This document shows, in pieces, positions 37,595 through 61,487 of a stretch of DNA of 64,000 nucleotides (positions are counted from its first letter, which is position 1; the number at the start of each line of letters is the position of its first letter). The notes under the pieces were generated by a model. That model was not told where the DNA came from, searched no databases, and worked only from the letters and a program-made list of their open reading frames with translations. The translations under genes were made by a program, and so were the position numbers. The DNA is from an uncultured Anaerolineae bacterium (GTDB lineage Bacteria; Chloroflexota; Anaerolineae; VGOG01), in assembly GCA_964390805.1 (NCBI GenBank), contig CAYMKL010000006.1:7895-71894 (forward strand). The letters run 5' to 3'.

Positions 37595-37604
37595 GTTTTC
37601 CTCT

Positions 37605-39798: not shown

Positions 39799-39936
39799 AC
39801 GTCTTCTTCCTTGATTGGACGCGCTTCCGCTGCGCGCTTCTCGCCATTGAGAGATGCAGACCGATTCTATCACAATCCTCTTGGGATGTCAAACAAACTT
39901 CTTCCGTTGACAGCAGTGGCACCATAGAGACTGTTT

Positions 39937-40044
39937 GTCATTGCGAGACGGAGGCGAAGCAATCCCCACCCCGCAAATTGGAGATTGCCCTTCGGCTAAG
40001 CTCAGGACAGGCTTCGGCACAGAAACCGTGCCTCGCAATGACAC
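39937..40044. repeat. MITE-like element of about 108 nt with imperfect terminal inverted repeats GTCATTGCGAG...CTCGCAATGAC (copy A)
   Basis: gtcattgcgagacggaggcgaagcaatcccc...cgtgcctcgcaatgacac. A related copy lies at 42829-42917. Confidence 0.6.
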
Positions 40045-40059
40045 ATGCACCCGGCAAAG

Positions 40060-41747: not shown

Positions 41748-41784
41748 CTTCATCACCATCTCCCTCCCTGGCAACGGCTGAGTA

Positions 41785-41836
41785 GAGACGAACAAGCAAA
41801 TCAGCGAACGACGCCCTTCGCCATTCGCTGATTTGT
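41785..41836 (-). terminator. Conserved 52-54 nt hairpin element (stem CAAATCAGCGAA/TTCGCTGATTTG), copy 1. Probably a minus-strand terminator.
   Basis: Nearly identical to 43970-44023, and both follow stops of minus-strand genes. Confidence 0.45.
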
Positions 41837-43139: not shown

Positions 43140-43604
43140 CTACCTCTCTGCTTCTTCTGTGCTCAGTTGGCTCAGCAGACTGCGAACCGTGAGCAGAAAC
43201 TCACCCGGTTGCTGCACGGTGATGATGTGGGCAGGCGGAGAGTAATGGCGTACATTGAAAGTCAGGAGATAGGGACATCTCTCCCGCAGCGCCGCAACCA
43301 GGATGGGCAAGTCCTTGGAGTCGGCTTGGTCGGCATGAGGGAGGAGATCATCTGGCTCCGGGTCAGGCACCACGCGCAGACAGCGGCTGACCAACAGATG
43401 GAGCTCAGGCAGCTTCGTGGGTAACTTGTCGGCCAGATTGCGCTCCACCTCGGTCACGGCCTGCTGAGAGGTGACGCACTCGATCAGGGTGATTTCGCCC
43501 ATGCGCAGCACAACGTGACTGGCGCCATACTCAGAGGGTGAAGCTGCTCCAGCGAAGATGACGTCGGCATCCAGGAAGACGGTTGGCTTACGTATCCTGG
43601 CCAC
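43140..43604 (-). CDS. PIN-domain ribonuclease (VapC-like toxin)
   Basis: The N-terminus VFLDADVIF carries an acidic Asp. Overall PIN fold pattern. Overlaps the upstream antitoxin gene by 17 nt. Confidence 0.65.
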   Translation of the reverse strand: MARIRKPTVFLDADVIFAGAASPSEYGASHVVLRMGEITLIECVTSQQAVTEVERNLADKLPTKLPELHLLVSRCLRVVPDPEPDDLLPHADQADSKDLPILVAALRERCPYLLTFNVRHYSPPAHIITVQQPGEFLLTVRSLLSQLSTEEAER

Positions 43605-43863
43605 CGTACTTCTCCGCCGTGTACCGCTCGCGTTGCTCGCGCAGCCCTTTGAGCATCTCCTCCATGCTCAGTCCCGCTTCGATGCGCGCCCGTTCGATCT
43701 CCCGTGCCAGCTCGGGCACCATGGGCGTCATCGGTGTCAGCACGAAGATGCCGTCCAGGTCCACAAGGCGGAAGGTGTCACCCGGCTTGATGCTGTAACG
43801 CTCGCGCAACCGAGCGGGTAAGGTCAGCGTACCCCGCTGACGCACCTGTACTGTGATGTCCAT
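43588..43863 (-). CDS. AbrB/MazE/SpoVT-type antitoxin (swapped-hairpin DNA-binding domain)
   Basis: MDITVQVRQRGTLTLPARLRERYSIKPGDTFRLVDLDG. The start at 43863 is internal to the longer annotated ORF. Confidence 0.6.
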   Translation of the reverse strand: MDITVQVRQRGTLTLPARLRERYSIKPGDTFRLVDLDGIFVLTPMTPMVPELAREIERARIEAGLSMEEMLKGLREQRERYTAEKYGGQDT

Positions 43864-43969
43864 AGAATCGTCTCCCGTCCGCATTTCTGCTTCATCTGAT
43901 TTCCAGCACAATCTGATTATACACCAGAGAGACGTTGGAGTCAAGTGCTACTCCGGCATCGTCCGCTGG

Positions 43970-44023
43970 CAGAGACAAACAAACAAATCAGCGAACGACG
44001 CCCTTTGCCATTCGCTGATTTGG
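43970..44023 (-). terminator. Conserved 54-nt hairpin element, copy 2, downstream of the TIR-STAND gene
   Basis: agagacaaacaaacaaatcagcgaacgacgccctttgccattcgctgatttgg. On the minus strand the stem is followed by GTTTGTTTG. Confidence 0.5.
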
Positions 44024-44039
44024 GGATGCTGGGCGCTGC

Positions 44040-46922
44040 TCACAGCGACTCCTCCAACCGGGCCAGCAGAGCACCGGCCTCGTCGTAGGCCACGCGGTAG
44101 GTGTAATCCGGCGGGCCGTCGCAGGTGGCCAAGTGGCGGGCCTGCTGCGCATGGGCCAACGCCGCCTCTCGATCCCCCTTCTCCAGCGCCATCTCCGCCA
44201 GGAAGAGGTGCACGTCGGCGCCTTGCAGCACGTACTCGCTGCGTTCGGTGATGATCAATGCTTCCCCGGCCAGGCGCAGCGCCTCGTCGGTATGCCCCTG
44301 GTCTCGGCGCAGACGAGCCAGGTCCAGCAGGATGTATGCCTCGTGATCCACCATGTTGATGCCCCGGCAGCGGGTCAGGGCCTCGGTCAGGTGGCGGTCG
44401 GCATCGTCGAGGCTTCGCCCTGAGCCTGTCGAAGGGTCGCCGCTGGCCCAGTGCGCCGCGCCCAGCAGCCAGTGGGCGCACACGTAGTCCCGCTCGTACG
44501 GGGACCAGGTTCGGGCCGTCTCGTCCGCCAGTTGCAGCGCCCTCCGGGCGGCGGCCAGTCCCTCAGCGTGCAGGGGCGCAGCGTGCTCTGCCCCTACAGC
44601 CCGCACCCACAGCAGGGCGCGCAGCGTCCGATAGGCCCAGTTCACAGATCCGTAATTTGTCTGTCCTGGTCCCAGTTCGTCGAACACCTTTTGGGCCGTC
44701 AGTAACTCCTTCTCCGCGTCGGCCCACGCGCCACAGTAGGCCAGCAGCCGCCCCAGTTCCGAATGCCCAATCGCCTCGTTGAACTCATCCTCAATCTCCC
44801 GACAGAGGGCAATACGGCGGCGCAGGCTGGCCTCTGCCGCCCGCAGCGCACCGATGACCAATTGCTGCGTTGCCAGGTTCCCCAGGTCGATGGCGAGATT
44901 CCGCCTATCACCCTCGCTTTCATCCAGGTCCGCCGAAACTTGGAACAGTGGCACAGCACGACCTGGCTGTCCTGAGAGAGAGTGGGAGTTGGCCAGAGCA
45001 CATGCAGCCCATGACTGGGAACGCTTGGTTTCCAAGCACGGCGGTTGATCTTCTCCCCCAGGGAATAAGACACTTAGCAGTTCAATCTGCAATTGATAGC
45101 TGCCAAGCTGATAATAGGCAGCGCTGTGAAGACGATTCTGAAAGAGCCTGAACGCCTCGTCGTAGAACCCAGCGCGCACGGTGTGGTGGTAGAGTTCGAT
45201 CACCGGCGCCAGGTCGTCCAGGGAGTGCACCTGGTCCGGCGGGGGCACGGCGGCGAAATAGTCCCGCAATTGGCCGTGGGCGGCCTGCCGCTCGGGATCG
45301 CCCAGCCGGTCGTACGCGTAACGTCGCACAATGGGGTGCAGGTCGTAGCGTCCTTTCTGGCGGTCGTGGTGCAGCAGGCCACGGGCCACCAGGTCGCGCA
45401 GGTCAGCATCCAATCCGTAGGGGCGGGGCAACCCCGCCCCTTGCGGCGATGGGAGCGATGGGGGTGATGGGGCCGAGGGAACCTCGCCCCTACCGATGGC
45501 GGCGATGGCCTCGTAGCCCACCGCGCCGCGGAAGCAGGCGATGCGACTGAGCAACCGCTGGCGTCCGGGCGTCAGGTTGCTGTAGGCCTGCCCCAGCACG
45601 TGGTGCTGGCGCTGCTTCAAATTGCCGCTCACGTCCAACCGCCGGGCGGCGGCCACGTCGCCGGGTTGCTGTGGATCACGCACGGTGAGACCGGCCAACA
45701 AGCGCAGGCTCAGCGGGTGGTAGCCGTAGGGGGCGCAGGCCGCCTGGATCTCGGCCCGCGCGCCGCGGATGCCCTGGGCACGGAAGAAGGCCACCGCGTC
45801 GGCCTTCCCCATCTGGGTCAGCTCCTCCTCGCAGCAGCCCTGCAGCAGGTCGCCCCCGTGGACTTGCAGGATGCGGGGCAGCAGCCGGGTGGTTAGGAGG
45901 ACCTTGCCGCGGATGCCCGGCAGGGTGGCCACGCCGCGCAGGAGGTGCTCGGCGAGGGGAGAGATGCAGTCGCGCTGGCCCTCACCCCTCCCCCCGTCCC
46001 CCTCCCCTCTCCCAACATCAGGAGAGGAGAGGGGGTGGTCGCCGAGGTAGGCGGCGTTCATGCTGCTGTAGGCACGCAGGGCGCGCTCGAAGCCGTCCAG
46101 GATGAGCAGCGTGCCGGGCTGGCGCAGCAGCCGCAGCAACTCGTCGGCCTGCTGGCGGGGGCCCAGGCGGGACGCACCTCGCAGGTGCATTGCACTCTGC
46201 AGGTAGCCCAACGCCTCCCGCAGGAAGGAGTCGAACTCCCGCTCGTCGTAGAAGCCCCACCAGACGACGCGAGGCCAGGCGGCGGGGTTCACGTCGTGCA
46301 GCAGCCAGTGCCAGGCCAGGGCGGACTTGCCGAAGCCACCCAGCGCACGCAGCACCAGCAGGGAGTGACCGCTGTCGGCGTGGAGCCAGCGGCTCAGCAT
46401 CTCCCGCTCGGCCAGCCGCCCGGTGAAGTTGGGCGGCATGGGGTAGGGATGCTTCAGGAACCATTCCTCCCGGCGGGGTGGCTCTGGTGCTTCCTGCATG
46501 GGCGGCGCGCCCAAGGCAGTAAGGAGCTGCGTCCAGGCGAGGTCGCGTTCCTCCGGGTCGGTGAAGTCCACGTAGGTCAGGTAGCGGATACGTAGCGGCA
46601 GATCGCACCTTTCCTTCAGCAGCGGGATCAACCGGCGCTCACGGTTGGCCGGATCGAGCACCTGGAGCATCAACGTCTCGAACTCGGTCCAGGCGCTGGT
46701 CAGGTAGGCGGGCGTCAGTACGAGTAGCGTCTTGCGACTGGTCAGCACGGCCCGCTCCATCTCGGTGACGCTGGGTGCGCCGGGCTCGAAATCGCGGTAG
46801 TCCATGATGACCTCCAACCCCGCTGCCTCCAGAAACGGTAGTAGCGTTCCCCGTACCCAAGCTTTGTCAGCGTGGCTGTAGGAGATAAAGACGTCGTAGC
46901 GGTATTCTTCCTGTTCGCTCAT
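44040..46922 (-). CDS. TIR-domain / NB-ARC (STAND P-loop NTPase) / TPR-repeat protein, a candidate antiphage defence sensor-effector
   Basis: N-terminal TIR (YDVFISYSHADKAWV...). Walker A LRALGGFGKSALAWHW with Walker B/NB-ARC features. C-terminal TPR-like repeats of about 350 aa. A low-complexity G/E/R-rich insert sits inside the NTPase. Confidence 0.85.
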   Translation of the reverse strand: MSEQEEYRYDVFISYSHADKAWVRGTLLPFLEAAGLEVIMDYRDFEPGAPSVTEMERAVLTSRKTLLVLTPAYLTSAWTEFETLMLQVLDPANRERRLIPLLKERCDLPLRIRYLTYVDFTDPEERDLAWTQLLTALGAPPMQEAPEPPRREEWFLKHPYPMPPNFTGRLAEREMLSRWLHADSGHSLLVLRALGGFGKSALAWHWLLHDVNPAAWPRVVWWGFYDEREFDSFLREALGYLQSAMHLRGASRLGPRQQADELLRLLRQPGTLLILDGFERALRAYSSMNAAYLGDHPLSSPDVGRGEGDGGRGEGQRDCISPLAEHLLRGVATLPGIRGKVLLTTRLLPRILQVHGGDLLQGCCEEELTQMGKADAVAFFRAQGIRGARAEIQAACAPYGYHPLSLRLLAGLTVRDPQQPGDVAAARRLDVSGNLKQRQHHVLGQAYSNLTPGRQRLLSRIACFRGAVGYEAIAAIGRGEVPSAPSPPSLPSPQGAGLPRPYGLDADLRDLVARGLLHHDRQKGRYDLHPIVRRYAYDRLGDPERQAAHGQLRDYFAAVPPPDQVHSLDDLAPVIELYHHTVRAGFYDEAFRLFQNRLHSAAYYQLGSYQLQIELLSVLFPGGEDQPPCLETKRSQSWAACALANSHSLSGQPGRAVPLFQVSADLDESEGDRRNLAIDLGNLATQQLVIGALRAAEASLRRRIALCREIEDEFNEAIGHSELGRLLAYCGAWADAEKELLTAQKVFDELGPGQTNYGSVNWAYRTLRALLWVRAVGAEHAAPLHAEGLAAARRALQLADETARTWSPYERDYVCAHWLLGAAHWASGDPSTGSGRSLDDADRHLTEALTRCRGINMVDHEAYILLDLARLRRDQGHTDEALRLAGEALIITERSEYVLQGADVHLFLAEMALEKGDREAALAHAQQARHLATCDGPPDYTYRVAYDEAGALLARLEESL

Positions 46923-46984
46923 CGTCCCTCCTATCGGCGCGGCATCGGGACTCAATCGCCAGGCGGCTACCACCTGGCGACAAT

Positions 46985-48367
46985 TTACCGGGCACAGCGG
47001 AAGCCGACGTCGTCGTTGGCCAGTTCAACGGCGCTAGCGCTCCGCTCGGTGGTGCGCACCAGATTCTGGTCGCTGAACCAGCCGCCCCCTCGGATCACCC
47101 TGTACTTCTCTCCAAAATAAGGGGAATAGAAGTCACCGCCAGGATAGGCCTTAAACCAGTCGCTCGTCCACTCGGATACGTTGCCCGCCATGTCCATCGC
47201 ACCATAAGGACTGGCCCCGGCAGGGAAGCTCCCTACAGCGGTGGTCCCGCGATGACCTGCCTCCTTCGCGTTGGCCCTGGCTGCATCCCACTGGTTGCCC
47301 CAGGGATAGCTGCGCGCATCGGTGCCCCGCGCCGCCTTTTCCCACTCCGCTTCGGTAGGTAACCTCTTCCCCGCCCACTGGCAAAAAGCTTTGGCATCGT
47401 TCCAGCTTACTTTCACCACGGGATGCTGAGCCTTGTCCTTAGCATAGTACCGCCAGGACGTGTCACCTGCCTTCTCCGCATCGGTGACATAGCCTGTTTC
47501 CGCGACAAACTTCTCAAAGTCCTCGTTGGTTACCTCAAGCTTGTCCATCTCAAAGCCATCAACGAAGACCGCATGAGGCGGCCTCTCGTCCTCGACATCG
47601 CTGCCCATGGTGAACTCTCCAGCAGGGATGGCGATCATGGCCGCCTCTACCGCGGGGCGCGGAGTCGGCGGGGTCGAGGTTGCCGTCGCCCTGACTTCAG
47701 TTGCGGTGCTGGTGGGCGCTATCGTCCCACCCTGGGGGATGATCAACTCCTGGTCTATCTGCAGCCGATTGGGATCTGATATAGCGTTGACCTCTTGGAG
47801 AGCCTCGACTGTAACCCCGTACTGCTTGGCGATGGCACCCAGCGTGTCGCCGGCCTCAACCACGTGGATCACAGGCGCGGTGGTCGGTGAGACGGAGGTT
47901 GATGTGACTGTAGCCTCTACCTGCCTCTGAGGAATGACGAGCTCCTGGTCTATCTGCAAACGTGTGGGATCGGAGATAGCATTGACTTCCTGGAGGGCTT
48001 CCACGGTAACTCCGAACTCCTTGGCGATGGCGCCCAAAGTATCTCCAGCCTGAACCACATAGATCACCGGCGTAGGCGTAGGCAAGGCAGGCGTCAGAGT
48101 GGGCGGTGGGAGCGTTGCTGTCGCTTCGTACATATGTTGATGAAGCGGCGGCATAAGGTGCATGGGAGTCGTCGTTACAGGGGCAAGAGTCCTTTCAGGC
48201 GGCATCGGCGTGGTAGCGGTAGCCGTCAGCGGGATAAGGGTTGGAGTTTCCTGCACAGGTTGTGATGTTGGCGTAGCTCGTGCAAGCGTTGGAATTCGCG
48301 AACAGGCTGTTGTGGCGAGGACAAACCCCATCGCCACCAGCAAGGCCCCTAGCTTGTTTCTTATCAT
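46985..48367 (-). CDS. Lipoprotein with two LysM domains and a C-terminal FGE-sulfatase (SUMF1-like) domain
   Basis: Lipobox LATTAC. Two LysM repeats (YVVQAGDTLGAIAKEFGVTVEALQEVNAISDP and HVVEAGDTLGAIAKQYGVTVEALQEVNAISDP). The FGE-sulfatase signature ends in RGGGWFSD and GFRCAR. Confidence 0.8.
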   Translation of the reverse strand: MIRNKLGALLVAMGFVLATTACSRIPTLARATPTSQPVQETPTLIPLTATATTPMPPERTLAPVTTTPMHLMPPLHQHMYEATATLPPPTLTPALPTPTPVIYVVQAGDTLGAIAKEFGVTVEALQEVNAISDPTRLQIDQELVIPQRQVEATVTSTSVSPTTAPVIHVVEAGDTLGAIAKQYGVTVEALQEVNAISDPNRLQIDQELIIPQGGTIAPTSTATEVRATATSTPPTPRPAVEAAMIAIPAGEFTMGSDVEDERPPHAVFVDGFEMDKLEVTNEDFEKFVAETGYVTDAEKAGDTSWRYYAKDKAQHPVVKVSWNDAKAFCQWAGKRLPTEAEWEKAARGTDARSYPWGNQWDAARANAKEAGHRGTTAVGSFPAGASPYGAMDMAGNVSEWTSDWFKAYPGGDFYSPYFGEKYRVIRGGGWFSDQNLVRTTERSASAVELANDDVGFRCAR

Positions 48368-48400
48368 CGCAAAACCTCCATTTCGTGTGGCGGGCAAGTT

Positions 48401-48904
48401 TCAGCCACGCTTCTCTGCTCCCCCTTCAACCCTATTCAAGTCCACATGCAAAAAGGGGTTGTCGGTCATCAGGCCCTCTGCTTTAGCTGCACGCAACATC
48501 TGATCGTCGCCGCTGACGAAGACCAGTATGATCTCCTGATCGGCCAGGTTGCGAGCAGCTTCCAACCCGGTAGCCAGGTGTACTGCATCGCAGCCTTTCA
48601 GTGGATGTGCTCGGGGCAAAAGGGCGGCACGGTCAATGAGCAGTCGGGTCACAGCCAAGAGTTGATAGGCACCTGTTTCTACGTCATTGGCGAAGTCTCG
48701 ATACGCATGTTGACCCTGCCGTTTGGTCAATTTGCCCACCCTGATAGAGATGGCAATGGCGGCTGACACCTCCACGATGGTCATCTCGCTGGTCAGGAAT
48801 ACGTTTTCCGGGTCGGCTGCCAGCAAACGCACCCAGGCACTACCTGGCTCGTCTACGTACCGCTTGACCACCACACTGGAATCCCAATAATAGAAGAAGC
48901 CCAT
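48401..48904 (-). CDS. PIN-domain protein (VapC-like)
   Basis: WDSSVVVKRYVDE and PIN pattern. Confidence 0.7.
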   Translation of the reverse strand: MGFFYYWDSSVVVKRYVDEPGSAWVRLLAADPENVFLTSEMTIVEVSAAIAISIRVGKLTKRQGQHAYRDFANDVETGAYQLLAVTRLLIDRAALLPRAHPLKGCDAVHLATGLEAARNLADQEIILVFVSGDDQMLRAAKAEGLMTDNPFLHVDLNRVEGGAEKRG

Positions 48905-50930: not shown

Positions 50931-52079
50931 CTACGCCTTGCTCTCCACTTCTATCAGCGCGTAGGTTTTACTCCCCAAACCCAACTCAGCCGCCGCATCA
51001 ATGTGCTCCTGAGCATCAATGCCCAGGGCATCGGCCAGAATGCGGTCGCCCTGGCGTAGCCCTTTGTCTGCCGACAGCGAATCCGGCAGAGGGGCAGCCT
51101 GATTGATCAGATCCCAACTGGCCTGTTCGACGGCCACGATGTCGGTGGAAGCCAGGATGCCCTGATCCTGTACCAGCGGGGTGTCGGCGACGGGCATGCA
51201 GTCACATTCAGGCTGCACCTCCAGCAGGAAGTTGAAGTAGAGCACCTTCCCCGGCGCGAAGGTGCTCAGCACCGCCTGGGCAGCCTCGGCCAGACCCCGC
51301 TGGAACTCGGTAAACTCGCGTCCCTTGTAGATAGCGCCCTCGGGACAGACACGGGCACAGCGTCCGCAGCGCCAACACTTGTCCTCGTCGAAGGAGATGT
51401 CTACTCCGTCGAACAGGACAGCCCCGGTGGGACACACGTGGTAGCACTGCAGGCACATATTACACAGCTCCAGATTGCGGACCATGTCCATCTCACCCGG
51501 TACGTGCAGGTGGCCTCGCGCCCGCTTCCAATCGCCGCTGCGATGGCGGCCGCTGACCCCGCCCATGGCGACATTCTTGATCGCGCCGGCGTAACCAGAC
51601 ATGATGTGCCCCTTGCAGTGGGTGACCACCACCATGGCTGGCGCGTCATGGATGGCCGAACTGACACTGATCTCACCCAAAATGGGGCCGGCTTTGACCG
51701 GCACGTTGTCATAACCGAAGATGCCGTCGGCCAGGATCACCGGAGCACCCATGGACATGGGATTGATGCCATGTTGGTTGGCAACCTCCAGGTAGTCCCA
51801 GCCCCTGATGCGGGTGCTATCGGTCACGAAGGGTTTGCCGCCGGCTTCCTTGACCCCTTCAACGATCTTGCGCAGGAAAATAGGCCGCACGATACGATGG
51901 GCTCCCTCGGACCCGAGATGGGTTTTCACAGCCACATAGTCGTCGGGCTCGACGCGCTGAGAGAATTCCAGCCGCTTGATCAGCTCCTCTAGTGTGGCGA
52001 TCAGGCTATACCTGTAGTCCCACTTGGTGGCCCGCGCACTGGCATAGTAGACTATGCTGGCCTCACTCTTTTTCGCCAT
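50931..52079 (-). CDS. DUF362-domain protein with a 2x[4Fe-4S] ferredoxin insert
   Basis: CNMCLQCYHVCP and CWRCGRCARVCP motifs. RBS AAGGAGG. Confidence 0.65.
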   Translation of the reverse strand: MAKKSEASIVYYASARATKWDYRYSLIATLEELIKRLEFSQRVEPDDYVAVKTHLGSEGAHRIVRPIFLRKIVEGVKEAGGKPFVTDSTRIRGWDYLEVANQHGINPMSMGAPVILADGIFGYDNVPVKAGPILGEISVSSAIHDAPAMVVVTHCKGHIMSGYAGAIKNVAMGGVSGRHRSGDWKRARGHLHVPGEMDMVRNLELCNMCLQCYHVCPTGAVLFDGVDISFDEDKCWRCGRCARVCPEGAIYKGREFTEFQRGLAEAAQAVLSTFAPGKVLYFNFLLEVQPECDCMPVADTPLVQDQGILASTDIVAVEQASWDLINQAAPLPDSLSADKGLRQGDRILADALGIDAQEHIDAAAELGLGSKTYALIEVESKA

Positions 52080-52174
52080 TCCAACCTCCTTGATATGTTC
52101 GAGCAATTGCGCGCAACTTCACTACAGTCTCGGTGTTGTAAACAGTAAACCGGTTTGAGTAGGAGGAAATTCCC

Positions 52175-52780: not shown

Positions 52781-53017
52781 ATTCAGTACATCGCAATTGC
52801 GAAGATGAGCTGGCTCCAATGCCCGCGTTTCGGCGGCCCTTCGGCCGTAAGCGGAGCGACGCTCAGGACAGGCGTGGGAGCCGCCTCTGCTTATAGCTGG
52901 CGAGCTAGTAGATTATAGCACAACGAGCCGGGGTAGCAAACTCCAGGAAGTCGGCTTGCCTGTTCCTTGACAGGTAAGCCGACTTTGGCTTTCTGGCAGG
53001 CCAGGCGGAACATCTCT

Positions 53018-53046
53018 TTGACAAAATCCCGGCTACGTGCTATCAT
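53018..53046 (+). promoter_or_regulatory. Candidate sigma70-type promoter (TTGACA-17 nt-TATCAT) for the mttB-family operon
   Basis: TTGACA at 53018-53023 and TATCAT at 53041-53046, about 45 nt upstream of the RBS and ATG at 53093. An upstream hairpin at 52955-52992 may terminate plsY. Confidence 0.45.
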
Positions 53047-53092
53047 TACGCCGCTCATCAAGGCTTGTCCAAAAAACGCAAAGGAGAGAAGA

Positions 53093-54550
53093 ATGTTCAG
53101 GCCCAAGCTAGAACTACTCGACAGAGAAACCATTGAGCGCATCCTGGCGGAAGCCCACGAGTTGCTGTGGGACCCCGGCGTGCGCATCCATAGCGACGAG
53201 GCCCTCAAGCTGGTCGCTGATGCTGGAGCCACTGTTGATTTCGACAGCAAAGTGGCTCGGATCCCAGCCGAACTAGTTGACAAGGCTGTGGAAACGGTGC
53301 CCTCCTCGTTTCACCTCCACGATTTCGAGGGGAACCCTGTAGTACACTATGGCGACGATGACGTGCAGTTTGACCCAGGCTCGGCAGCCATCGAATTTTT
53401 GGATTATGGAGCGACCCAGTCGCGCACACCAATCACGGCCGACTTTGTCGCTTATATCAAGTTGGCTGACATGCTGCCAGAGCTAGACGCGGTCAGCACG
53501 GCTCTGGTCTGCTCGGACGTGCCGGAGAGCATGGCTGATCTCTATCGCCTCTACCTGGTGCTCAGGTACGCCAGGAAGCCCGTCATCACCGGCGCCTTTG
53601 CCGTTGAGACTTTGGCAATCATGAAAGACCTGCTCGTCGCTGTGGTCGGCAGCGACGAGGCGCTGGCCGCCAAGCCCATCGCGGTGTTCGACGTCTGCCC
53701 CTCGCCCCCCCTGCTGTGGAGCGAGATCACCTGCCAGAACATGATTGACTGCGCCCGCGCGGGTATCCCAGCCGAGCTGGTCTCCATGCCCCTGGCCGGG
53801 GCGACGGGCCCCGCTACCCTGGTTGGCTCGGTGGTGCAGCACGCCGCCGAGTGCCTGAGCGGCATCACCATTCACCAACTGGCCAAAGCCGGTTCTCCCA
53901 TCGTTTGGGGTGGCTCACCTGCCGCCTTCGATATGCGCACGGGGACACCCCCCATGGGGGCTATCGAGACCATGATGATAGATTGTGCTTATGCTCAGGT
54001 CGGCAAGTACCTGGGACTGCCCACCCACGCCTACATGGGCATGAGCGACGCCAAGATCGTAGATGCGCAGGCCGGCTTCGAGTCCGGCATCGGCAACATC
54101 ATGGCAGCCCTGGCCGGGGTGAACATGGTTTCTGGGGCCGGCATGATGGACTTCGAAAGCTGTTTCAGCCTGGAGAAGCTGGTGATTGATAACGAGCTCA
54201 TCGGCATGGCACGCCGCCTGGTGCGGGGCATTGACGCCTCAGAGGATCCCCTGGCCACCGTCATCATGCGCCAGGTCGGCCATGCGGGCAACTTCCTGGC
54301 CACCAAACACACCCGCCGCTGGTTCAAGCGAGAGCAGTTTATCCCCTCCCCCGTCATTGACCGCGACTACCGTCAGGCCTGGGAGAACAAGGGTGCTAAG
54401 GACATCGTGCAGCGAGCGCATGAACGAGTTGAGCAGTTGGTAGCAGCCTACCAACCCAAGCCCCTGCCCAAAGGGGTGGAGCAGGAGTTGGTGGCTATCA
54501 CCCTGCGGACAGCCAAAGCCCAGGGGCTAGAGAGATTACCGCCACTGTGA
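53093..54550 (+). CDS. MttB-superfamily (trimethylamine methyltransferase family) non-pyrrolysine methyltransferase, paralog 1
   Basis: The N-terminus MFRPKLELLDRETIERILAEAHELLWDPGVRIH is a typical MttB family start. TIM-barrel length, with no in-frame amber codon. Confidence 0.85.
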   Translation: MFRPKLELLDRETIERILAEAHELLWDPGVRIHSDEALKLVADAGATVDFDSKVARIPAELVDKAVETVPSSFHLHDFEGNPVVHYGDDDVQFDPGSAAIEFLDYGATQSRTPITADFVAYIKLADMLPELDAVSTALVCSDVPESMADLYRLYLVLRYARKPVITGAFAVETLAIMKDLLVAVVGSDEALAAKPIAVFDVCPSPPLLWSEITCQNMIDCARAGIPAELVSMPLAGATGPATLVGSVVQHAAECLSGITIHQLAKAGSPIVWGGSPAAFDMRTGTPPMGAIETMMIDCAYAQVGKYLGLPTHAYMGMSDAKIVDAQAGFESGIGNIMAALAGVNMVSGAGMMDFESCFSLEKLVIDNELIGMARRLVRGIDASEDPLATVIMRQVGHAGNFLATKHTRRWFKREQFIPSPVIDRDYRQAWENKGAKDIVQRAHERVEQLVAAYQPKPLPKGVEQELVAITLRTAKAQGLERLPPL

Positions 54551-54578
54551 TCTATTGCGGGAAACGAGTAACGAGGGG

Positions 54579-56018
54579 ATGAGTCAAATTGAACGCCCCA
54601 AACTGCGCCTGGAGGTGCTGAGCCAGGACGAGGTGCGACGCATCCACCAGGCCAGCCTGGAGGTCATCAAGACGGTTGGGGTGCGCTTTCCTTCGGACTG
54701 GGCCCTTGATATTCTGGAGGAGACGGGAGCGATAGTGGATCGAGAAAGCCAGATCGCCCGCCTCCCCAGCCAGCTCATTGTCGAGGCTTTGACCAACGCG
54801 CCGCCATCGTATGTGCTCTGCGCCCGCGATCCCGCCCTGGATCTGCCCCTGGACGGTGAGCACTCCTATCTGTCCACCGACGGCTGTGGCGTGGAGGTCA
54901 TTGACATCGAGACGAGAGAGCGACGGCGCTCGACCAGGCAGGACGTGGCCGAGTCAGCACTGGTGGCCGATTACCTGCCTCAGATCGCTTTCTACTGGCC
55001 TATAGTAGCCGCCCAGGACTGTCCCCCGCAAACGCGCTCTTTGCACGAACTGGAGGCCGCCTGGAACAATACCACCAAGCACGTCCAGACCGAGTGCGTC
55101 ATCACGGCCAGGGAAGCCGAAGCGGCCATTGAGATGGCTGCGGCCATCGTCGGCGGGCGCGACGAGCTGAGAAAACGCCCCATCCTCTCCATCATGCAGT
55201 GCACCATCAGCCCCCTAGGGCAGGATGGGGGCAGCCTGGAGGCCGCTCTGGTTGCTGCCGCAGCGGGCCTACCAGTGGGCTTCATGACCATGGCCAGTTG
55301 CTGCTCCACCGGGCCAGCCACGCTGGCCGGCAACCTGGTGGTGGGCAACGCCGAGGTGATCGCCGCCTCCGCCCTCATTGAGCTGGCCTACCCAGGCACG
55401 CCCATTTTCTACGCCGCCGCTCAGACGGCCATGGACCTCCGCACGGGGGCCTATACCGGTGGAGGGCCGGAGGACTACCTCTTCGGAGCAGCCACCAACC
55501 AACTGGCTGACTTCTACAGGATCCCCCTCTCCATGGGTGCCTTCGCCAGCGGCGCAAAAGAGCCCGACTGGCAAGCGGCGCTGGACAACGCCTTTGCCGG
55601 CCTGATGCCCGTCCTCAGCGGAGCCGACATGCTGACCGGTGCAGGCCTGCTCTATGGCTCGCGCATCCTCTCCTACGAGCAATTGCTCATGGATTGTGAG
55701 ATCTACGACCTTATCCAGGCCACAGCACGGGGCATCGAAGTAAGCGACGAGACCCTGGCTTTGGAGGTCATTAAGTCCGTGGGTGTGGGTGGACACTACC
55801 TGGACCAGACACACACACTGAAGCACATGAAGAAGCGATGGGTGCCAAGCCTGGTGGATCGCCGCTCCTATAGAGCCTGGGAGAAAGATGACCGGCGAGG
55901 GGCGAGGGAGTGGGCCCACGAGAAAGCAAGGTGGATCCTGGCTAATCACCGCCCAGAGCTGTTGGAACCCAGGCTGCAGGAAGAACTATCCAAGATCATT
56001 GCTATCATGGAGAAGTAG
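54579..56018 (+). CDS. MttB-superfamily methyltransferase, paralog 2
   Basis: ERPKLRLEVLSQDEVRRIHQASLEVIKTVGVRF. Lies 28 nt downstream of paralog 1. Confidence 0.85.
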   Translation: MSQIERPKLRLEVLSQDEVRRIHQASLEVIKTVGVRFPSDWALDILEETGAIVDRESQIARLPSQLIVEALTNAPPSYVLCARDPALDLPLDGEHSYLSTDGCGVEVIDIETRERRRSTRQDVAESALVADYLPQIAFYWPIVAAQDCPPQTRSLHELEAAWNNTTKHVQTECVITAREAEAAIEMAAAIVGGRDELRKRPILSIMQCTISPLGQDGGSLEAALVAAAAGLPVGFMTMASCCSTGPATLAGNLVVGNAEVIAASALIELAYPGTPIFYAAAQTAMDLRTGAYTGGGPEDYLFGAATNQLADFYRIPLSMGAFASGAKEPDWQAALDNAFAGLMPVLSGADMLTGAGLLYGSRILSYEQLLMDCEIYDLIQATARGIEVSDETLALEVIKSVGVGGHYLDQTHTLKHMKKRWVPSLVDRRSYRAWEKDDRRGAREWAHEKARWILANHRPELLEPRLQEELSKIIAIMEK

Positions 56019-56023
56019 GGAGT

Positions 56024-56138
56024 CTTTGGGGATTTACGTGAATAGCAGGCCGGAGTCCTCAACTTGTTGAGGTTTGCCGCACCGCAACCTCAACAAGTTG
56101 AGGACTCCGACACCATGACCCCGCGAAATCCCAAAGAG
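56024..56138 (+). repeat. Large nested palindrome: a 21-bp perfect inner stem (GGAGTCCTCAACTTGTTGAGG/CCTCAACAAGTTGAGGACTCC) within outer arms CTTTGGGGATTT/AAATCCCAAAGAG
   Basis: Read directly from the sequence at 56052-56072 and 56088-56108 (inner stem) and 56024-56035 and 56126-56138 (outer arms). Confidence 0.8.
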
Positions 56139-56161
56139 CCTGAAGAGCAAGGAGCTAGACC

Positions 56162-57625
56162 ATGCGACCCAAGCTGGAACTCCTGGAACATGAGCTAGTG
56201 GAACGCATCGTGGGCGAGGCCTACGAGCTGTTGTGGGACCCCGGTGTGCTGGTGCACCGAGAGCGCGCTCTGACAATCCTGGCCGAGGGCGGGGCCACGG
56301 TGGACTTCGAGAAGAAGACCGCCAAGATACCCCAGCATAAGATTGACGAGGCCCTCAAGACTGCCCCGGCCAGCGTGGATGTCTACGACCTGAAGGGAGA
56401 GCTGCGCCTGCGCCTGGGGCAGGACAACACGTATTTCTACCCCGGCGCTACCGCTCTGCAGATCATAGACCCCGTCACCGACGAGTACCGTCCTCCCGTC
56501 ACCGAAGACCTGGTGCGCTTCATCCAGATGGTGGAGGGCTTGCCCCAGATTGACGCCCAGGCTGGCTCGCTGCTGTGCGCCGATGTGCCCAAGATGGTTT
56601 CGGATAGTTATCGTTATTACCTGATGCTGCTCTATGGCACGAAACCCCTCTGCGGCGGGGCCTTCAGCATCGAGGGCTGGTATCCCATGAAGGACCTGCT
56701 GGCGGCCTACTTCGGCAGCGAGGAGGCCATCGCCGCCAAGCCCGTCAATACTATGGCCATCTGTCCATCGCCGCCCCTTCTTTGGAGCGACATCACTTGT
56801 CAGAACCTCATGGACTGCGCCAAATGGGGCCTGCCGGCGGTGCTCATCTCCATGCCCCTGTCTGGAGCCACCGCCCCAGTGACCATCGCGGGTACGGTGG
56901 TGCAACACGCTGCCGAATCCCTGAGCGGCGTAGTCATCCACCAGTTAGTGAACCCGGGTGCACCCATCATCTACGGCAGCTCGCCAGCTATGTTTGACAT
57001 GCGTGAGGGCACCACGCCCATGGGATCCATCGAAACTGTCATGATCAACTGTGCCAACGCTCAGGTAGGCAAATACCTGAACCTGCCCACTCACGGCTAC
57101 GTGGGCTTGAGCGACGCCAAGATCGTGGACGCGCAGGCCGGCCTGGAGTCGGCGATGGGGTCGGTTCTAGGGGCCCTGGCTGGAATCAACCTCATCTGCG
57201 GGGCCGGCATGTCCGACTTCGAGAGCGGGTCGAGCTTCGAGAAGGTGGTCATAGACGCCGAGGTGATCGGCATGGCCAAACGACTGCTCGCTGGAGTCGA
57301 AGCCCGTGAGGAGAGCCTGGCTACGACCCTGATGCGGGAAGTGGGACACCAGGGCAATTTCCTGGCCACGGAGCACACTCGTAGATGGTTCAGAGAGGAG
57401 CAGTACATTCCCTCAGCGGTCATTGACCGCGCCTCCCAAAGCATTTGGGAGAATCGCGGGAACAAGAACGCCGTGCAGCGCGCCCGCGAACGGGCCGTGG
57501 CCCTGATCGCCGAGTACCAGCCCCCTGAAGTGCCCGCTGAGGTCCGTAAGGAGTTGAAGGCCGTTATGACTAGGGCTGCGAAGCAGTATGGTGTGGATGA
57601 ATTGCCGCCCCTGCCAGAGTTGTAG
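56162..57625 (+). CDS. MttB-superfamily methyltransferase, paralog 3
   Basis: MRPKLELLEHELVERIVGEAYELLWDPGVLVH. RBS AAGGAG. Confidence 0.85.
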   Translation: MRPKLELLEHELVERIVGEAYELLWDPGVLVHRERALTILAEGGATVDFEKKTAKIPQHKIDEALKTAPASVDVYDLKGELRLRLGQDNTYFYPGATALQIIDPVTDEYRPPVTEDLVRFIQMVEGLPQIDAQAGSLLCADVPKMVSDSYRYYLMLLYGTKPLCGGAFSIEGWYPMKDLLAAYFGSEEAIAAKPVNTMAICPSPPLLWSDITCQNLMDCAKWGLPAVLISMPLSGATAPVTIAGTVVQHAAESLSGVVIHQLVNPGAPIIYGSSPAMFDMREGTTPMGSIETVMINCANAQVGKYLNLPTHGYVGLSDAKIVDAQAGLESAMGSVLGALAGINLICGAGMSDFESGSSFEKVVIDAEVIGMAKRLLAGVEAREESLATTLMREVGHQGNFLATEHTRRWFREEQYIPSAVIDRASQSIWENRGNKNAVQRARERAVALIAEYQPPEVPAEVRKELKAVMTRAAKQYGVDELPPLPEL

Positions 57626-57670: not shown

Positions 57671-57702
57671 ACAAAGAGGAGTCAACGCTGACTCCTCTTT
57701 GT
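57671..57702. terminator. Bidirectional terminator hairpin between convergent mttB3 and the ABC ATPase gene
   Basis: ACAAAGAGGAGTCA-acgc-TGACTCCTCTTTGT: a 14-bp perfect stem flanked by A-rich and T-rich runs. Confidence 0.7.
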
Positions 57703-57733: not shown

Positions 57734-58483
57734 CTACAAAATATGTCGCAGGAAATCCCTCGTGCGCGGGTCCTGGGGGTTATCGAACATCTCCTGTGGC
57801 GTCCCCTCCTCAACCCACACTCCCTCATCCATGAACATAACGCGATGGGCGACCTCACGGGCGAAGCCCATCTCATGGGTGACCACGATCATGGTCATTC
57901 CCTCCCGCGCCAGGCGCTTCATCACGTCTAGCACCTCGCCGATCAGCTCGGGGTCCAAGGCTGAGGTTGGCTCGTCGAAGAGCATGATCTTGGGCTCCAT
58001 GGCATAGGCGCGGGCGATGGCCACCCGCTGCTGCTGCCCACCGGAGAGGCGCGCGGGGTACTCGTCGCGCTTGTCCATCAGACCCACCCAGCCCAGGTGC
58101 CGTTCGCCGATTTCGGTTGCTTCCTCTTTGGACATCCCCTTGACCGTCACTGGCCCCGCAATGACATTCCCCAGGGCTGTCATGTGGGGGAAGAGGTTGA
58201 AGTGCTGAAAGACCATGCCGGTCTTGGCCCGGATCTGCTGGATGTGAACGCGGTGCTCGCGACTGGGCTCCCCCGCTGGGATCACCACCCCGTCAATCTC
58301 GATGGTGCCCGCCGTTGGCTCCTCCAGGAAATTCAAACAGCGCAAAAACGTGCTCTTCCCCGACCCGGAGCGGCCGATGACCACTAACACCTCGCCCACT
58401 TCTACATCTAGATCAAAGCCTCTCAGAACGTAGAGCCCGCCGAAGCATTTCTCCAGCTTCCGAACTTTGATGATAGGCTCCAT
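57734..58483 (-). CDS. Polar amino acid ABC transporter ATP-binding protein (GlnQ/HisP/ArtP-like)
   Basis: Walker [10 protein letters not shown], signature [14 protein letters not shown], Walker [13 protein letters not shown]. Confidence 0.85.
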
Positions 58484-58489
58484 ATCACC

Positions 58490-59338
58490 TCATTTCCTCT
58501 CGCCCCGACTCATGTGGGTCTCCAGGCGGCCTTGCAATGCCTGCAACACGATACACATGATCCAGTAGATAATCGCGGCCACTGTCAGTGTTTCCAGGGA
58601 GCGGAAGTAGCGGCGACCCATTTTTGTGGCCCGGTAGGTCAACTCCCAGACCCCCATCACCATGACCAGAGACGAATCCTTGACCATGGCCACGAAGTCA
58701 TTGCCGATGGGGGGGATGACGACGCGGAGGGCCTGGGGCAAGATGACGCGGCGTCTTGTCTGGTTTGGCGTCATACCCACAGAATAGGCAGCCTCAGTCT
58801 GGCCTTTGCTGATGGATTGGATGCCGGCCCGGAAGGTCTCTGTCATGTAGGCGCCATAGCACACGCCCAGGGCCAGGATGCCAGCCGGTATGGCAGGCAA
58901 TGTCAGGAGCTTCTGCGCCCCAGTCAAGCCCAAGTCTTCCAACTGTTGCCCGATCTGCGGTAGACCAAGATACCACATATAGACCTGAACCAGCAAGGGC
59001 GTGCCTCGGACAAAGGAGACGTAGAAGCCAGAAATGCCGTTGGCGATGGGATTCTTGGAAAGCCGCCCCAGGGCCCCTAAGAGCGCCAAAATGATGGCCA
59101 CGATGATGGCGGCCACCGACACCAACAACGTGTACTGAATCCCCTGGACAATGAAGCCCAGCCTGTCGTACATGAAGTTGATGTCGAACTTGAGAAGCTT
59201 GACCCCCACTCCAAGGGCGATGAAGATGCCGACCCATACCACGCCCAACTGGATGACGAAATTCCGCACCTTGCCCCGCTGGGCGGCCATATTGCGCTCT
59301 GCCTCAGCCGACGGTTGAGATAATGCAACAGTACTCAT
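58490..59338 (-). CDS. Polar amino acid ABC transporter permease (HisM/GlnP-like)
   Basis: TM pattern and the conserved permease core region (SFVRGTPLLVQVYMWYLGLP). Confidence 0.8.
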   Translation of the reverse strand: MSTVALSQPSAEAERNMAAQRGKVRNFVIQLGVVWVGIFIALGVGVKLLKFDINFMYDRLGFIVQGIQYTLLVSVAAIIVAIILALLGALGRLSKNPIANGISGFYVSFVRGTPLLVQVYMWYLGLPQIGQQLEDLGLTGAQKLLTLPAIPAGILALGVCYGAYMTETFRAGIQSISKGQTEAAYSVGMTPNQTRRRVILPQALRVVIPPIGNDFVAMVKDSSLVMVMGVWELTYRATKMGRRYFRSLETLTVAAIIYWIMCIVLQALQGRLETHMSRGERK

Positions 59339-59379: not shown

Positions 59380-60303
59380 CTATAGGCGCAGCCGCGGGTC
59401 GAGCGCGTCACGCAAACCATCGCCCAGCAGGTTGAAGCCTAGCACTGTGATCATGATCGCCAAGCCGGGGAAGAACACCAGGTGCGGCGCACTGAAGACC
59501 TGGTTCCGCTCGCTGGCTAACATGGATCCCCATTCAGGATCAGGGGGTTGCGCGCCCATCCCGATAAACGAAAGCGCAGCCGTCTCCAGAATGGCGCTGC
59601 CAATACCCAATGTGCCCTGCACGATCATCGGAGAGATGGCATTGGGCAAGACGTGCAAGAAGAGAATTCGCAATGGACTAGCCCCAATTGACCGGGCCGC
59701 CGAAACATATTCCTCCTCTTTGACCGACAGAACACTGGAACGGATAACTCGGGCAAACGCTGGAATATTGATGATAGCGATGGCCATCATCGCATTAGTC
59801 AAACCCGGCCCCAGAACAGCAACAATGGCAATGGCCAGCAGTAGAAAGGGAAAGGCCAGCACCACGTCAAGGACACGCATGATAACGTCTGATACCCATC
59901 CTCCGACATAGCCAGCTACAGCCCCCAGGATTGTCCCCACAATTATGGCGGCGCCAATGGTGACAAATCCAATACGTAGGGAGATACGGGTGCCATAAAT
60001 GATGCGGCTAAACTCATCCCGCACATTGCCATCAATGCCCATCAGGTGCTGGGGTTGGTCTTCAGGGCAACCCAGCAGGTGAATGCACGGATCTGCCCGT
60101 CTCTTAACCGATTCTACTCCGATTAGAACTTGAATCGGATCATAGGGTGCAATGATGGGGGCGAAAATCGCCACCAGGGTCAAGAACCCCAGGAGAATCA
60201 TCCCGGCGATTCCTGATCGTTGTCGAAAGAGGCGTCGAAGGGCCACCAACCACAAATTCTCAGAGCGTGAGTATTTTCGGAAATCTGTAGATAGAGTCTG
60301 CAT
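59380..60303 (-). CDS. Oligopeptide/dipeptide-type ABC permease (DppC/OppC-like)
   Basis: N-terminus typical of OppC (LWLVALRRLFRQRSGIAGMILLGFLTLVAIFAPIIAPYDP) and the conserved permease core region. Confidence 0.8.
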   Translation of the reverse strand: MQTLSTDFRKYSRSENLWLVALRRLFRQRSGIAGMILLGFLTLVAIFAPIIAPYDPIQVLIGVESVKRRADPCIHLLGCPEDQPQHLMGIDGNVRDEFSRIIYGTRISLRIGFVTIGAAIIVGTILGAVAGYVGGWVSDVIMRVLDVVLAFPFLLLAIAIVAVLGPGLTNAMMAIAIINIPAFARVIRSSVLSVKEEEYVSAARSIGASPLRILFLHVLPNAISPMIVQGTLGIGSAILETAALSFIGMGAQPPDPEWGSMLASERNQVFSAPHLVFFPGLAIMITVLGFNLLGDGLRDALDPRLRL

Positions 60304-60407: not shown

Positions 60408-61487
60408 TCAGCTCATTTTAATGCGGGGATCGAGGAAAGCATACGATAGGTCTACCACCAGGTTTATGACGATATACCCTAACGCAACTACAACCGTGAA
60501 ACCCTGAATAATGGGAAAGTCGCGTGCAGTGATTGCTTCATATAGGCTTCGCCCTACCCCCGCCAGGCTGAAAATCGTCTCTGTGAGAATCGCCCCACTG
60601 AAGACCACACCCAGTTGAAGCCCCACTATCGTCACAATTGGTAGAAGCGCATTGCGGAAACCATGCCTCATCACTACCCATCGTTCAGACAGCCCCTTGG
60701 CCCGGGCCGTACGCATGTAGTCTAACCCCAATACCTGCAACATGCTGGAGCGAGTCATACGCGCGATAATTGCCATGGGAATAGTGCTGAGCGCCGCCGC
60801 AGGCAAGATCAGGTGCGTAATCGCGTCCTTTAGAACCTCCCAATTGAGGGTGATCAGGGAGTTAAAAACGTAGAAGTTGCCAACGAATTCCAACAACTTG
60901 GCGATCAACGCACCTTCTGTCAGTTCCCAACCATATACCTCATAGAAAGGCGTCGCTGCCAATCCCGCCGACAATCGCCCCGAGGGCGGCAACTGTAAGG
61001 GCGTACCTTTTAACACCAAAGCAAAGACATAGGCCAACATCAAACCCAGCCAGAATACGGGCATCGAAACCCCGACATTTGCCCATACCATCGTACCTAC
61101 ATCAACGGCAGAATTATGGCGCAGGGCCGAAACAATGCCAAGGGGTATGCCGACTAAACAAGCGATGAGCAATCCGGCAAAACCCAGTTCGATCGTCATT
61201 GGCAGGCGCTCGACCAGGATTTGGGTAATAGGACGACGAAACCGAATCGAGTTACCGAAATCGCCATGCGCTAACTCATTCATATAGATACCAAACTGAA
61301 CCAGAATGGGCTTGTCAAACCCCCTTTCGCGATTGAAACGCTCACAAACTTCATCGGTGGCTTTTTCTCCCAGCATCGCTTTGCAAGGGTCACCAGGAAT
61401 CGCCCGGGCTAGAGCAAAAGTGACCAGCAAAACACCAAACAAAACAGGCAATGAGGCCACAATGCGTCGAATGGCATATTTGATCAT
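60408..61487 (-). CDS. Oligopeptide/dipeptide-type ABC permease (DppB/OppB-like)
   Basis: MIKYAIRRIVASLPVLFGVLLVTFALARAIPGDP is the classic DppB N-terminus. Confidence 0.85.
   Translation of the reverse strand: MIKYAIRRIVASLPVLFGVLLVTFALARAIPGDPCKAMLGEKATDEVCERFNRERGFDKPILVQFGIYMNELAHGDFGNSIRFRRPITQILVERLPMTIELGFAGLLIACLVGIPLGIVSALRHNSAVDVGTMVWANVGVSMPVFWLGLMLAYVFALVLKGTPLQLPPSGRLSAGLAATPFYEVYGWELTEGALIAKLLEFVGNFYVFNSLITLNWEVLKDAITHLILPAAALSTIPMAIIARMTRSSMLQVLGLDYMRTARAKGLSERWVVMRHGFRNALLPIVTIVGLQLGVVFSGAILTETIFSLAGVGRSLYEAITARDFPIIQGFTVVVALGYIVINLVVDLSYAFLDPRIKMS

Follow-up and report, generated by a model that had tools for sequence, protein, structure and literature searches.

Results

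Three consecutive methyltransferase genes of two divergent types

The DNA analysed here is a 64-kb window from an uncultured Anaerolineae bacterium, and the coordinates of all window features refer to this stretch. Its forward strand carries three consecutive genes for methyltransferases of the MttB superfamily, designated here P1 (53093–54550, + strand), P2 (54579–56018, + strand) and P3 (56162–57625, + strand), which encode proteins of 485, 479 and 487 amino acids (aa). All three belong to Pfam family PF06253; P1 and P3 are placed in one clade of the superfamily (clade A) and P2 in another (clade B). The original prediction, made from the letters and the translated open reading frames (ORFs), had described three tandem superfamily members that do without pyrrolysine (Pyl), and the full-length PF06253 matches and lack of internal stop codons confirm this description. 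Its proposal of a Chloroflexota source is likewise supported, and the genome is Anaerolineae-like. The named sources of the numerous P1 and P2 homologues are metagenome-assembled genomes (MAGs) of Anaerolineae or other Chloroflexota throughout.

The longest ORFs follow one another on the + strand at 52967–54550 (P1), 54555–56018 (P2) and 56162–57625 (P3). The likely start of P1 is the ATG at 53093, with a Shine-Dalgarno sequence (AAAGGAGA) 7 nt ahead of it; this start is favoured because a sigma-70-like promoter (53018–53046, + strand; TTGACA, a 17-nt spacer and TATCAT with TG, 11/12 matches) falls within the extension of the ORF to TTG 52967. P2 probably starts at the ATG at 54579, and an identical protein is already on record as P0121. 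Sizes of 480–530 aa had been given for the three proteins; the genes are indeed intact, but the 527-aa figure for P1 stems from the upstream TTG, an unlikely start. The proteins begin with MFRPKLELL (P1), MSQIERPKLRLEVL (P2) and MRPKLELL (P3). P1 and P3 are 56% identical and P2 is 26–28% identical to either, which points to two divergent types, P2 on the one hand and P1/P3 on the other, rather than three equally diverged paralogues.

Family membership and fold

PF06253 is matched over profile positions of about 23–497 of 500 by all three proteins, with 316 (P1), 309 (P2) and 304 bits (P3) against a cut-off of 25 and E-values of 1e-90 to 3e-94. The sole NCBIfam match of each is TIGR02369, the trimethylamine methyltransferase equivalog, and all three scores (416, 471 and 401 bits for P1, P2 and P3) lie below its cut-off of 525 bits. 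Solved structures of MttB and MtgB are matched at E-values of 1e-61 to 1e-70, and the alignments with Methanosarcina barkeri MttB (7XCL), Desulfitobacterium hafniense MtgB (2QNE/9YCE) and the Sinorhizobium meliloti protein 4YYC extend over about 465–475 residues. The best PDB match of P1 (3.8e-70) and P3 (3.3e-65) is 7XCL; P2 matches 9YCE/7XCL at about 1e-67. An AlphaFold model of P1 (pLDDT 81.8, pTM 0.84) gave Foldseek TM-scores of 0.86 to 7XCL, 0.84–0.85 to 9YCE/2QNE and 0.82 to 4YYC, and is thus predicted to adopt the TIM-barrel fold with a C-terminal helical extension that superposes on MttB and MtgB. The assignment to the MttB superfamily, as opposed to another TIM-barrel family, is therefore borne out by both the PF06253 and the solved-structure matches.

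The pyrrolysine position

The codons aligned with Pyl334 of M. barkeri MttB are ATG in P1 (54041–54043, Met317), GCC in P2 (55545–55547, Ala323) and TTG in P3 (57107–57109, Leu316), in agreement with the earlier statement that no in-frame amber codon occupies this position. Alanine is invariant here in all 53 clade B sequences. Tyr364 and Gly110 are 100% conserved in Pyl-containing MttB (PMC9842639); the Tyr364 column holds Ser in P1, Thr in P2 and Cys in P3, and the Gly110 column Ser, Gly and Ala in the same order. The Tyr364 column moves by one in a second alignment, with no nearby Tyr under either.

The Rfam model of the mttB pyrrolysine insertion sequence (RF02510, PYLIS_3) matches the + strand of P1 at 54041–54140 with 38.6 bits (gathering score 38) and that of P3 at 57107–57206 with 37.6 bits. 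Position 1 of the model, the UAG, lands exactly on the Pyl-aligned ATG of P1 and TTG of P3. The matches contain few pairs, partly non-canonical, and read as a likely reflection of coding-sequence homology (SDAK...DAQAG) rather than of recoding, so that the Rfam model can fire on homologues without Pyl.

The 64-kb window contains no tRNA genes, and its Pfam annotation no pyl domains. TAG usage is ordinary, with no sign of avoidance or reassignment: it ends 16 of the 48 window genes, P2 and P3 among them, next to TGA in 25 and TAA in 7. That P1–P3 might be genuine Pyl-dependent trimethylamine methyltransferases would fit the start of the PYLIS_3 matches at the Pyl-aligned codon, the slightly higher scores of P1 and P3 against MttB than against MtgB, and the use of Pyl by some Chloroflexi (PMC5424206). 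This reading is already refuted by the sequence itself, which has ATG, GCC and TTG in place of TAG and not one internal stop; the replacement of Tyr364, the scores under the TIGR02369 cut-off, the lack of tRNA genes in the window, the role of TAG as an ordinary terminator of P2, P3 and other genes, and the poor pairing of the PYLIS matches all speak against it as well, and its probability is close to nil.

The substrate pocket

The glycine betaine site of MtgB comprises Y97, R312, H348 and F356, and R312 is reported to be shared by every member whose function is known, namely MtgB, MtcB, MtpB, MtyB and MthB (PMC13080624). In pairwise and multiple alignments the four positions are occupied by S, H, S and E in P1 and by A, H, C and E in P3. 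P2 has G, S, T and S in the multiple alignment, its residue at Y97 being Cys in the HMMER pairwise one. The residue at the Arg312 position (His312 in P1, Ser318 in P2 and His311 in P3) is characteristic of each clade, with His in 43 of 44 clade A sequences, Ser in 53 of 53 in clade B and Phe in 8 of 8 in a third clade, C. Arg is found in just 7 of 130 diverse representatives of the 50%-identity clusters nearest to P3, in which His, Gln, Tyr, Phe, Asp and Trp are all common. A residue other than Arg at this position is thus usual in the uncharacterised majority of the superfamily, and all that it indicates is that P1–P3 fall outside the known specificity groups.

Glycine betaine, proline betaine, carnitine and gamma-butyrobetaine, which had been put forward as the kind of substrate to expect, are accordingly not indicated for P1–P3, in which neither the MtgB residues nor Arg312 are found. 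The suggestion of three different substrates was overstated: P1 and P3 are recent paralogues that share two of the four pocket positions, the His at Arg312 and the Glu at Phe356, and only P2 differs. The substrates probably differ from those of the characterised enzymes, and our best guess is N-methylated amino acids or related small amines.

A corrinoid protein gene deleted between P1 and P2

Partner genes were sought in the window in two ways, by Pfam annotation of every non-overlapping ORF of at least 100 aa and by tblastn of the window with seed proteins from related loci. Neither search found a gene for a B12-binding, Pterin_bind, RACo/RamA, URO-D, MTHFR or DUF1638 protein in the 64 kb, so the earlier observation that no corrinoid protein, methyl-tetrahydrofolate (methyl-THF) transferase or activase lies near the array is true of the whole window. 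A DUF362/4Fe-4S protein (50931–52106), previously singled out as the nearest Fe-S candidate, was considered as an activase and rejected: it is not of the RamA/RACo type, has no RACo/ASKHA domains, and is missing at that position in some relatives (L004 and L012).

In the loci of two sister species, L012 and L011, a gene for a 217-aa corrinoid protein lies between P1 and P2. Their P1 proteins are 91% (L012) and 88% (L011) identical to that of the window and P2 is 89% identical, within an overall range of 85–91% for these proteins in the sister genomes. The sister corrinoid protein has B12-binding_2 and B12-binding domains with a DxHxxG motif, passes TIGR02370, 'methyltransferase cognate corrinoid protein', with 230 bits (cut-off 215), and scores near MtgC models (207 bits). 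The same arrangement recurs in metagenome contigs, in the order DUF362, PlsY, P1, corrinoid protein, P2, P3, ABC ATPase and permease in L088–L091, and as P1, corrinoid protein, P2 in L092–L094. From these comparisons, P1, corrinoid protein, P2, P3 appears to be the ancestral local order.

In the window, P1 and P2 are separated by only 28 nt (54551–54578, + strand), where the sister genomes have about 1 kb. The flanks of this junction align with L012, L088 and L089 at 85–90% by blastn; in the case of L012, 52109–54558 and 54587–56002 match at 88–90% on either side, and the intervening sequence (9275–10008 in L012, 526–1558 in L088) is without a counterpart in the window. No remnant or relocated copy of the corrinoid gene was found in the 64 kb by tblastn. 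The identical P1/P2 junction is present in three independent Logan assemblies and is thus real rather than an assembly artefact. We conclude that about 1 kb with the corrinoid gene has evidently been deleted at this site in the lineage of the window, and the missing corrinoid protein, treated earlier as a puzzling feature, comes down to the local loss of a gene that sister genomes retain between P1 and P2.

Further relatives also have no corrinoid gene (L004, L010, L013, L014, L015, L017 and L031). They show at least four further junction structures, and one of them, L031, retains the whole spacer between the corrinoid gene and P2. The P2 tree is star-like, and loci with and without the corrinoid gene interleave in it. 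From the differing junctions and this tree we infer, with moderate confidence, that the corrinoid gene was lost several times independently in this group. Short repeats containing ACGAG/ATGAG, for example AACGAGTAACGAG and GGCAATGAGGCAACGAGGCAATGAGG, fill the gene-less junctions of L014, L015, L031 and the window (54551–54578), and in L017 a hairpin insert of about 100 nt stands in their place; the repeats or the insert may be involved in the deletions. Other genes of the array come and go as well. L012 has no P3 and retains its last 170 nt or so (L012 11471–11640 against window 57454–57625), so that P3 must have been deleted there, and L004 has two copies of P1, 87% and 91% identical to that of the window. 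The array thus seems to gain and lose genes fast within one genus-level group.

A wider Chloroflexota module with its partner genes

The distribution of P2 homologues was surveyed in one genome per GTDB species, which gave 78 loci at 44–91% identity. These loci are GC-rich and were examined by gene calling weighted for GC at third codon positions together with a tblastn survey with seed proteins. Outside the close group, 48 of 56 loci have a corrinoid gene at most 400 nt ahead of the P2 homologue, and 44 of 55 have a gene of the P1/P3 type (clade A) at most 400 nt downstream of it. About twenty loci carry further partners: a Pterin_bind methyltransferase in 21, RACo in 18, DUF1638 in 17, MTHFR in 15 and a URO-D/MtaA-like protein in 9. 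The RACo/RamA-type activases of these loci have the architecture Fer2, RACo_middle and RACo_C_ter. In L054, for example, the Pterin_bind methyltransferase and RACo (3160–4200 and 6004–7605) are clustered with genes of the P2 and P1 types. The earlier statement that such proteins need a corrinoid protein, a methylcobalamin:THF methyltransferase and an activase is supported by these loci, which carry all of these beside homologues of P2 and P1.

A neighbour-joining tree resolves the paralogues into clade A, containing P1, P3 and the 'partner' genes, clade B, of the P2 type, and clade C, a third paralogue whose gene precedes the corrinoid gene in 27 loci; neither MtgB nor MttB belongs to any of the three. 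In the tree P3 lies nearest to the partner gene of L006 (complete genome CP070811), which makes it the positional orthologue of the partner found behind P2-type genes across Chloroflexota. P1 appears to be a lineage-specific duplicate of this P3-type partner, and its clade includes singleton genes (L008 and L009). P2 (clade B) and P1/P3 (clade A) appear to be two long-standing partner types that travel together in Chloroflexota. An obligate heteromer of A and B proteins was considered and is unlikely, since genes of both clades are also solitary (L008, L009, L019 and L030).

Selection on the array and probable supply of the missing partners

In pairwise comparisons of the window with nine related species, the ratio of nonsynonymous to synonymous substitution rates (dN/dS) is 0.08–0.13 for P1, 0.10–0.20 for P2 and 0.11–0.12 for P3. 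All three genes are clearly under purifying selection, also between pairs of genomes that both lack the corrinoid gene (dN/dS 0.08–0.19), and they are therefore probably served by a corrinoid protein encoded elsewhere. We consider it likely that P1–P3 are the first, substrate-binding methyltransferases (MT1) of a corrinoid- and THF-dependent N-demethylation system, left without their local corrinoid gene by the deletion, and infer that the corrinoid protein, the second methyltransferase and the activase that they probably use are encoded elsewhere in the genome. There are precedents for such an arrangement. In Eubacterium limosum, separate clusters hold the MT1 genes, mtqC and mtqA/ramQ, and several MT1s draw on the same corrinoid protein (PMC8604678); in Ruegeria pomeroyi the demethylation genes are scattered (PMC12478193).

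In the proposed reaction sequence, P1, P2 or P3 would bind a methylated amine in the TIM-barrel pocket and move one methyl group onto Co(I) of the small corrinoid protein, from which a pterin-binding methyltransferase would hand it to THF. A RACo/RamA-type activase, probably together with DUF1638, would re-reduce oxidised cofactor, and MTHFR would channel the methyl-THF into one-carbon oxidation or assimilation.

A different reading of the deletion is that the array is a decaying remnant, its methyltransferases functionless without their cognate corrinoid protein. The traceless loss of the corrinoid gene, the instability of the locus (P3 deleted in L012, P1 duplicated in L004, varying junctions) and the lack of a relocated close orthologue among the corrinoid proteins inspected would all be expected of decay. 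The three ORFs, however, are intact and have good predicted expression signals, and dN/dS is low (0.08–0.19) in comparisons with eight other species, most of which also lack the corrinoid gene, which is not the behaviour expected of pseudogenes. We regard decay as very improbable.

Alternatively, the methyltransferases may have no dedicated corrinoid protein and act on free cobamide, or on a corrinoid domain borrowed, for example, from a split methionine synthase. MtgB (PMC13080624) and MtcB (PMC8604678) methylate free cob(I)alamin in vitro, but MtyB is unable to use free cobalamin (PMC8604678). Borrowing has a parallel in R. pomeroyi, in which MtgC is common to methionine synthesis and betaine demethylation (PMC12478193), and the repeated loss of the corrinoid gene with retention of the methyltransferases is compatible with either version. 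The tight conservation of the corrinoid gene beside P2 homologues elsewhere (48/56) argues against both, as does the window, which encodes nothing of the kind, and this alternative is very unlikely.

Several observations nevertheless weigh against MT1 function with partners supplied from elsewhere. No partner gene for P1–P3 was located within the 64 kb of sequence from this organism. A relocated corrinoid orthologue did not emerge from a search with the L012 protein, in which the 84–100% identical orthologues inspected all occupy the slot between P1 and P2; only a less closely related paralogue could therefore stand in for it. The proteins of clades A, B and C are uncharacterised, and the pocket residues of P1–P3 differ from those of every characterised member, which leaves even the substrate class putative. 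Finally, the importer genes next to the array, described below, are convergent to it and are kept there only among close relatives.

Pairs and triplets of paralogues around one corrinoid protein

A tyrosine phenol-lyase gene is found in 11 of the related loci (TIGR02618; 770 bits against an equivalog cut-off of 720.7): L062 (15148–18183), L043, L044, L047, L054, L058, L061, L064, L065, L083 and L084. It sits after a cluster of three MttB paralogues, corrinoid protein, pterin methyltransferase, RACo, DUF1638 and MTHFR, and in five of the 11 (L043, L044, L047, L062 and L064) it is accompanied by an MFS transporter. This placement hints at N-methylated tyrosine as a substrate in the genomes concerned. 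A class-III aminotransferase, a further weak hint to the substrate, is encoded in 12 related loci.

The recurrence of two or three paralogues beside a single corrinoid gene raises the possibility that they act in sequence, each removing one methyl group of a single trimethylammonium compound to leave a primary amine or amino acid. This would be a special case of corrinoid/THF-dependent demethylation by P1–P3 rather than an alternative to it. The succession of clade B and clade A genes in 44 of 55 loci, with a clade C gene added ahead of the single corrinoid gene in 27, would suit such a division of labour, as would the clade-specific His, Ser or Phe in place of Arg312; the window group has arrived at three MT1 genes by another route, P1, corrinoid protein, P2, P3. 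Tyrosine phenol-lyase after three-MT1 clusters would be understandable with tyrosine as the end product, but the 11 loci are mutually related and the linkage may have been inherited rather than selected. Characterised members of the superfamily take only the first methyl of a quaternary amine, and MtgB refuses dimethylglycine and sarcosine (PMC13080624). Tertiary and secondary amines need activation, which Pyl gives in MttB and for which no substitute is evident here, and genes of clades A and B are also solitary (L008, L009, L019 and L030). Stepwise action is for these reasons unlikely. In the fuller version, Chloroflexota would have a conserved module of two or three divergent Pyl-free MttB paralogues that share one corrinoid protein and strip all three methyls stepwise from an amino-acid betaine or similar trimethylammonium compound to give an amino acid (tyrosine where tyrosine phenol-lyase is present), and in the window lineage the module would still operate after repeated loss of its corrinoid gene with a borrowed corrinoid protein from elsewhere. 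This version is decidedly unlikely.

The adjacent importer and other features of the window

The spacer between P2 and P3 (56019–56161, + strand) forms one long hairpin with perfect 21-nt arms (56052–56072 and 56088–56108), a folding energy of −71.5 kcal/mol and a z-score of −9.4. It is single-copy in the window, the spacer varies from 54 to about 830 nt among relatives, and the hairpin is possibly an intra-operon RNA element or the remnant of an insertion. A terminator-like 14-bp hairpin (57671–57702) separates P3 from the convergent gene of an ABC ATPase.

This ATPase, TcyN/GlnQ/EhuA-like by Pfam and NCBIfam (57734–58483, − strand), belongs to a set of importer genes on the same strand, which also comprises a polar-amino-acid type permease (TcyL/EhuD-like; 58490–59338), a GsiD/DppC-like permease (59380–60303), a DppB-like permease (60408–61487) and a binding protein with fused SBP_bac_3 and SBP_bac_5 domains, whose gene runs from 61700 to beyond the window end at 64000. 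The binding protein combines a Gln/Arg-type with a DppA-like domain, has its best PDB match in DppA (1e-81) and is 880 aa long in L004. The importer of the window has no OppD/F-type ATPases and is not an OpuA/ProU-type betaine system. The original prediction had called it an unusual ABC importer; it is a hybrid of Dpp and polar-amino-acid types and not of betaine type. Its linkage to the array is confined to close relatives, and the gene of its binding protein is cut by the window end. Synteny of array and importer is seen in L004, L010, L012, L015 and L088, with the modules shuffled: ATPase plus permease and Dpp-type modules differ strongly in identity among close relatives. L012 carries two Dpp-type sets, and Dpp/Opp-type sets also lie beside MttB clusters in L036, L073 and L081. 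The importer offers a weak hint to the substrate of the array.

Farther upstream, at 34661–41795 (− strand), lie genes for an ornithine cyclodeaminase/mu-crystallin, two DAO-family flavoproteins, a DUF6125 protein and a 735-aa protein with Fer2_4, Pyr_redox_2 and BFD domains. The last resembles the alpha subunit of oxidases for opines, sarcosine or D-hydroxyproline. The cluster, into which a weak IS200-like ORF intrudes, may serve in the oxidation of secondary amines or N-methyl amino acids; 11 kb with unrelated defence/toxin genes separate it from the MttB array, and it is not syntenic in L092. Genes of defence or toxin type occupy 551–6718, 19905–22781 and 43140–48904, and their products include a 2055-aa bacterial alpha-2-macroglobulin, a CHAT-TPR protein, a 977-aa TIR-TPR protein, PIN-domain proteins with a MazE-like antitoxin and an FGE-sulfatase/LysM protein.

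Discussion

P1–P3 share with MtgB of D. hafniense (PDB 2QNE, 9YCE), which works with MtgC and MtgA, the same Pyl-free TIM barrel over its full length (E about 1e-62 to 1e-68), but they are only about 29–30% identical to it, have all of Y97, R312, H348 and F356 replaced, and lack the corrinoid gene locally. M. barkeri MttB (PDB 7XCL–7XCN) is the best match of P1 (240 bits) and P3 (224 bits). The Pyl position is followed by a conserved SDAK motif, and the nucleotides downstream are close enough to trigger PYLIS_3. P1–P3 differ from MttB in having no UAG or Pyl, in the loss of Tyr364, in the retention of Gly110 by P2 only, and in their scores below the equivalog cut-off, and the methyl acceptor in the pathway of their relatives is THF rather than coenzyme M.

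The closest organisational parallels come from two bacterial systems. In E. limosum, MtpB, MtcB, MtyB and MthB act with MtqC, MtqA and RamQ, several MT1s per corrinoid protein, and the MT1 genes stand apart from their partners, as in the window; these enzymes retain Arg312 and act on acidic quaternary amines, and their host is a strict anaerobic acetogen. In R. pomeroyi, MtgB (pfam06253), MtgC, MtgD, MetF2, RamA and DUF1638 have been tied to glycine betaine demethylation by genetics and proteomics (PMC12478193). This MtgB1/MtgB2–MtgC–MtgD system draws on the same families as the full Chloroflexota clusters (PF06253, B12-binding, Pterin_bind, MTHFR, RamA/RACo and DUF1638), in an aerobic heterotroph of a different phylum with scattered genes and up to seven PF06253 paralogues per genome. 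The related S. meliloti protein 4YYC has Arg at the 312 position, unlike P1–P3. The chloromethane dehalogenase CdmB was also considered and is not a family member; its paper only cites papers on the MttB family.

The oddity of the window, three MT1 genes and none of their partners, thus has an ordinary explanation in a 1-kb deletion within a fluid locus, together with the known tendency of partner genes in such systems to be unlinked, and P1–P3 are additions, as yet uncharacterised, to a known type of system. The case is a warning that partner genes missing from a window need not reflect biology.

Among the 'methylamine' annotations of environmental genomes, those of MttB-superfamily genes rank with the commonest, and only about half a dozen substrates are known. 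A search with P3 returned 7,337 clusters at 50% identity, and 'mttB' was annotated in 17% of the MAGs of a floodplain study (PMC11264602). The abundant Anaerolineae versions fall in clades with pocket residues of their own and should therefore not be read as evidence of trimethylamine or glycine betaine users. The cognate corrinoid protein of the sister loci and the full partner set of the more distant ones provide a handle for reconstitution and substrate screening. What remains interesting is the conserved grouping, in Chloroflexota, of two or three divergent MT1 paralogues around a single corrinoid protein, which might reflect stepwise, complete demethylation of one compound.

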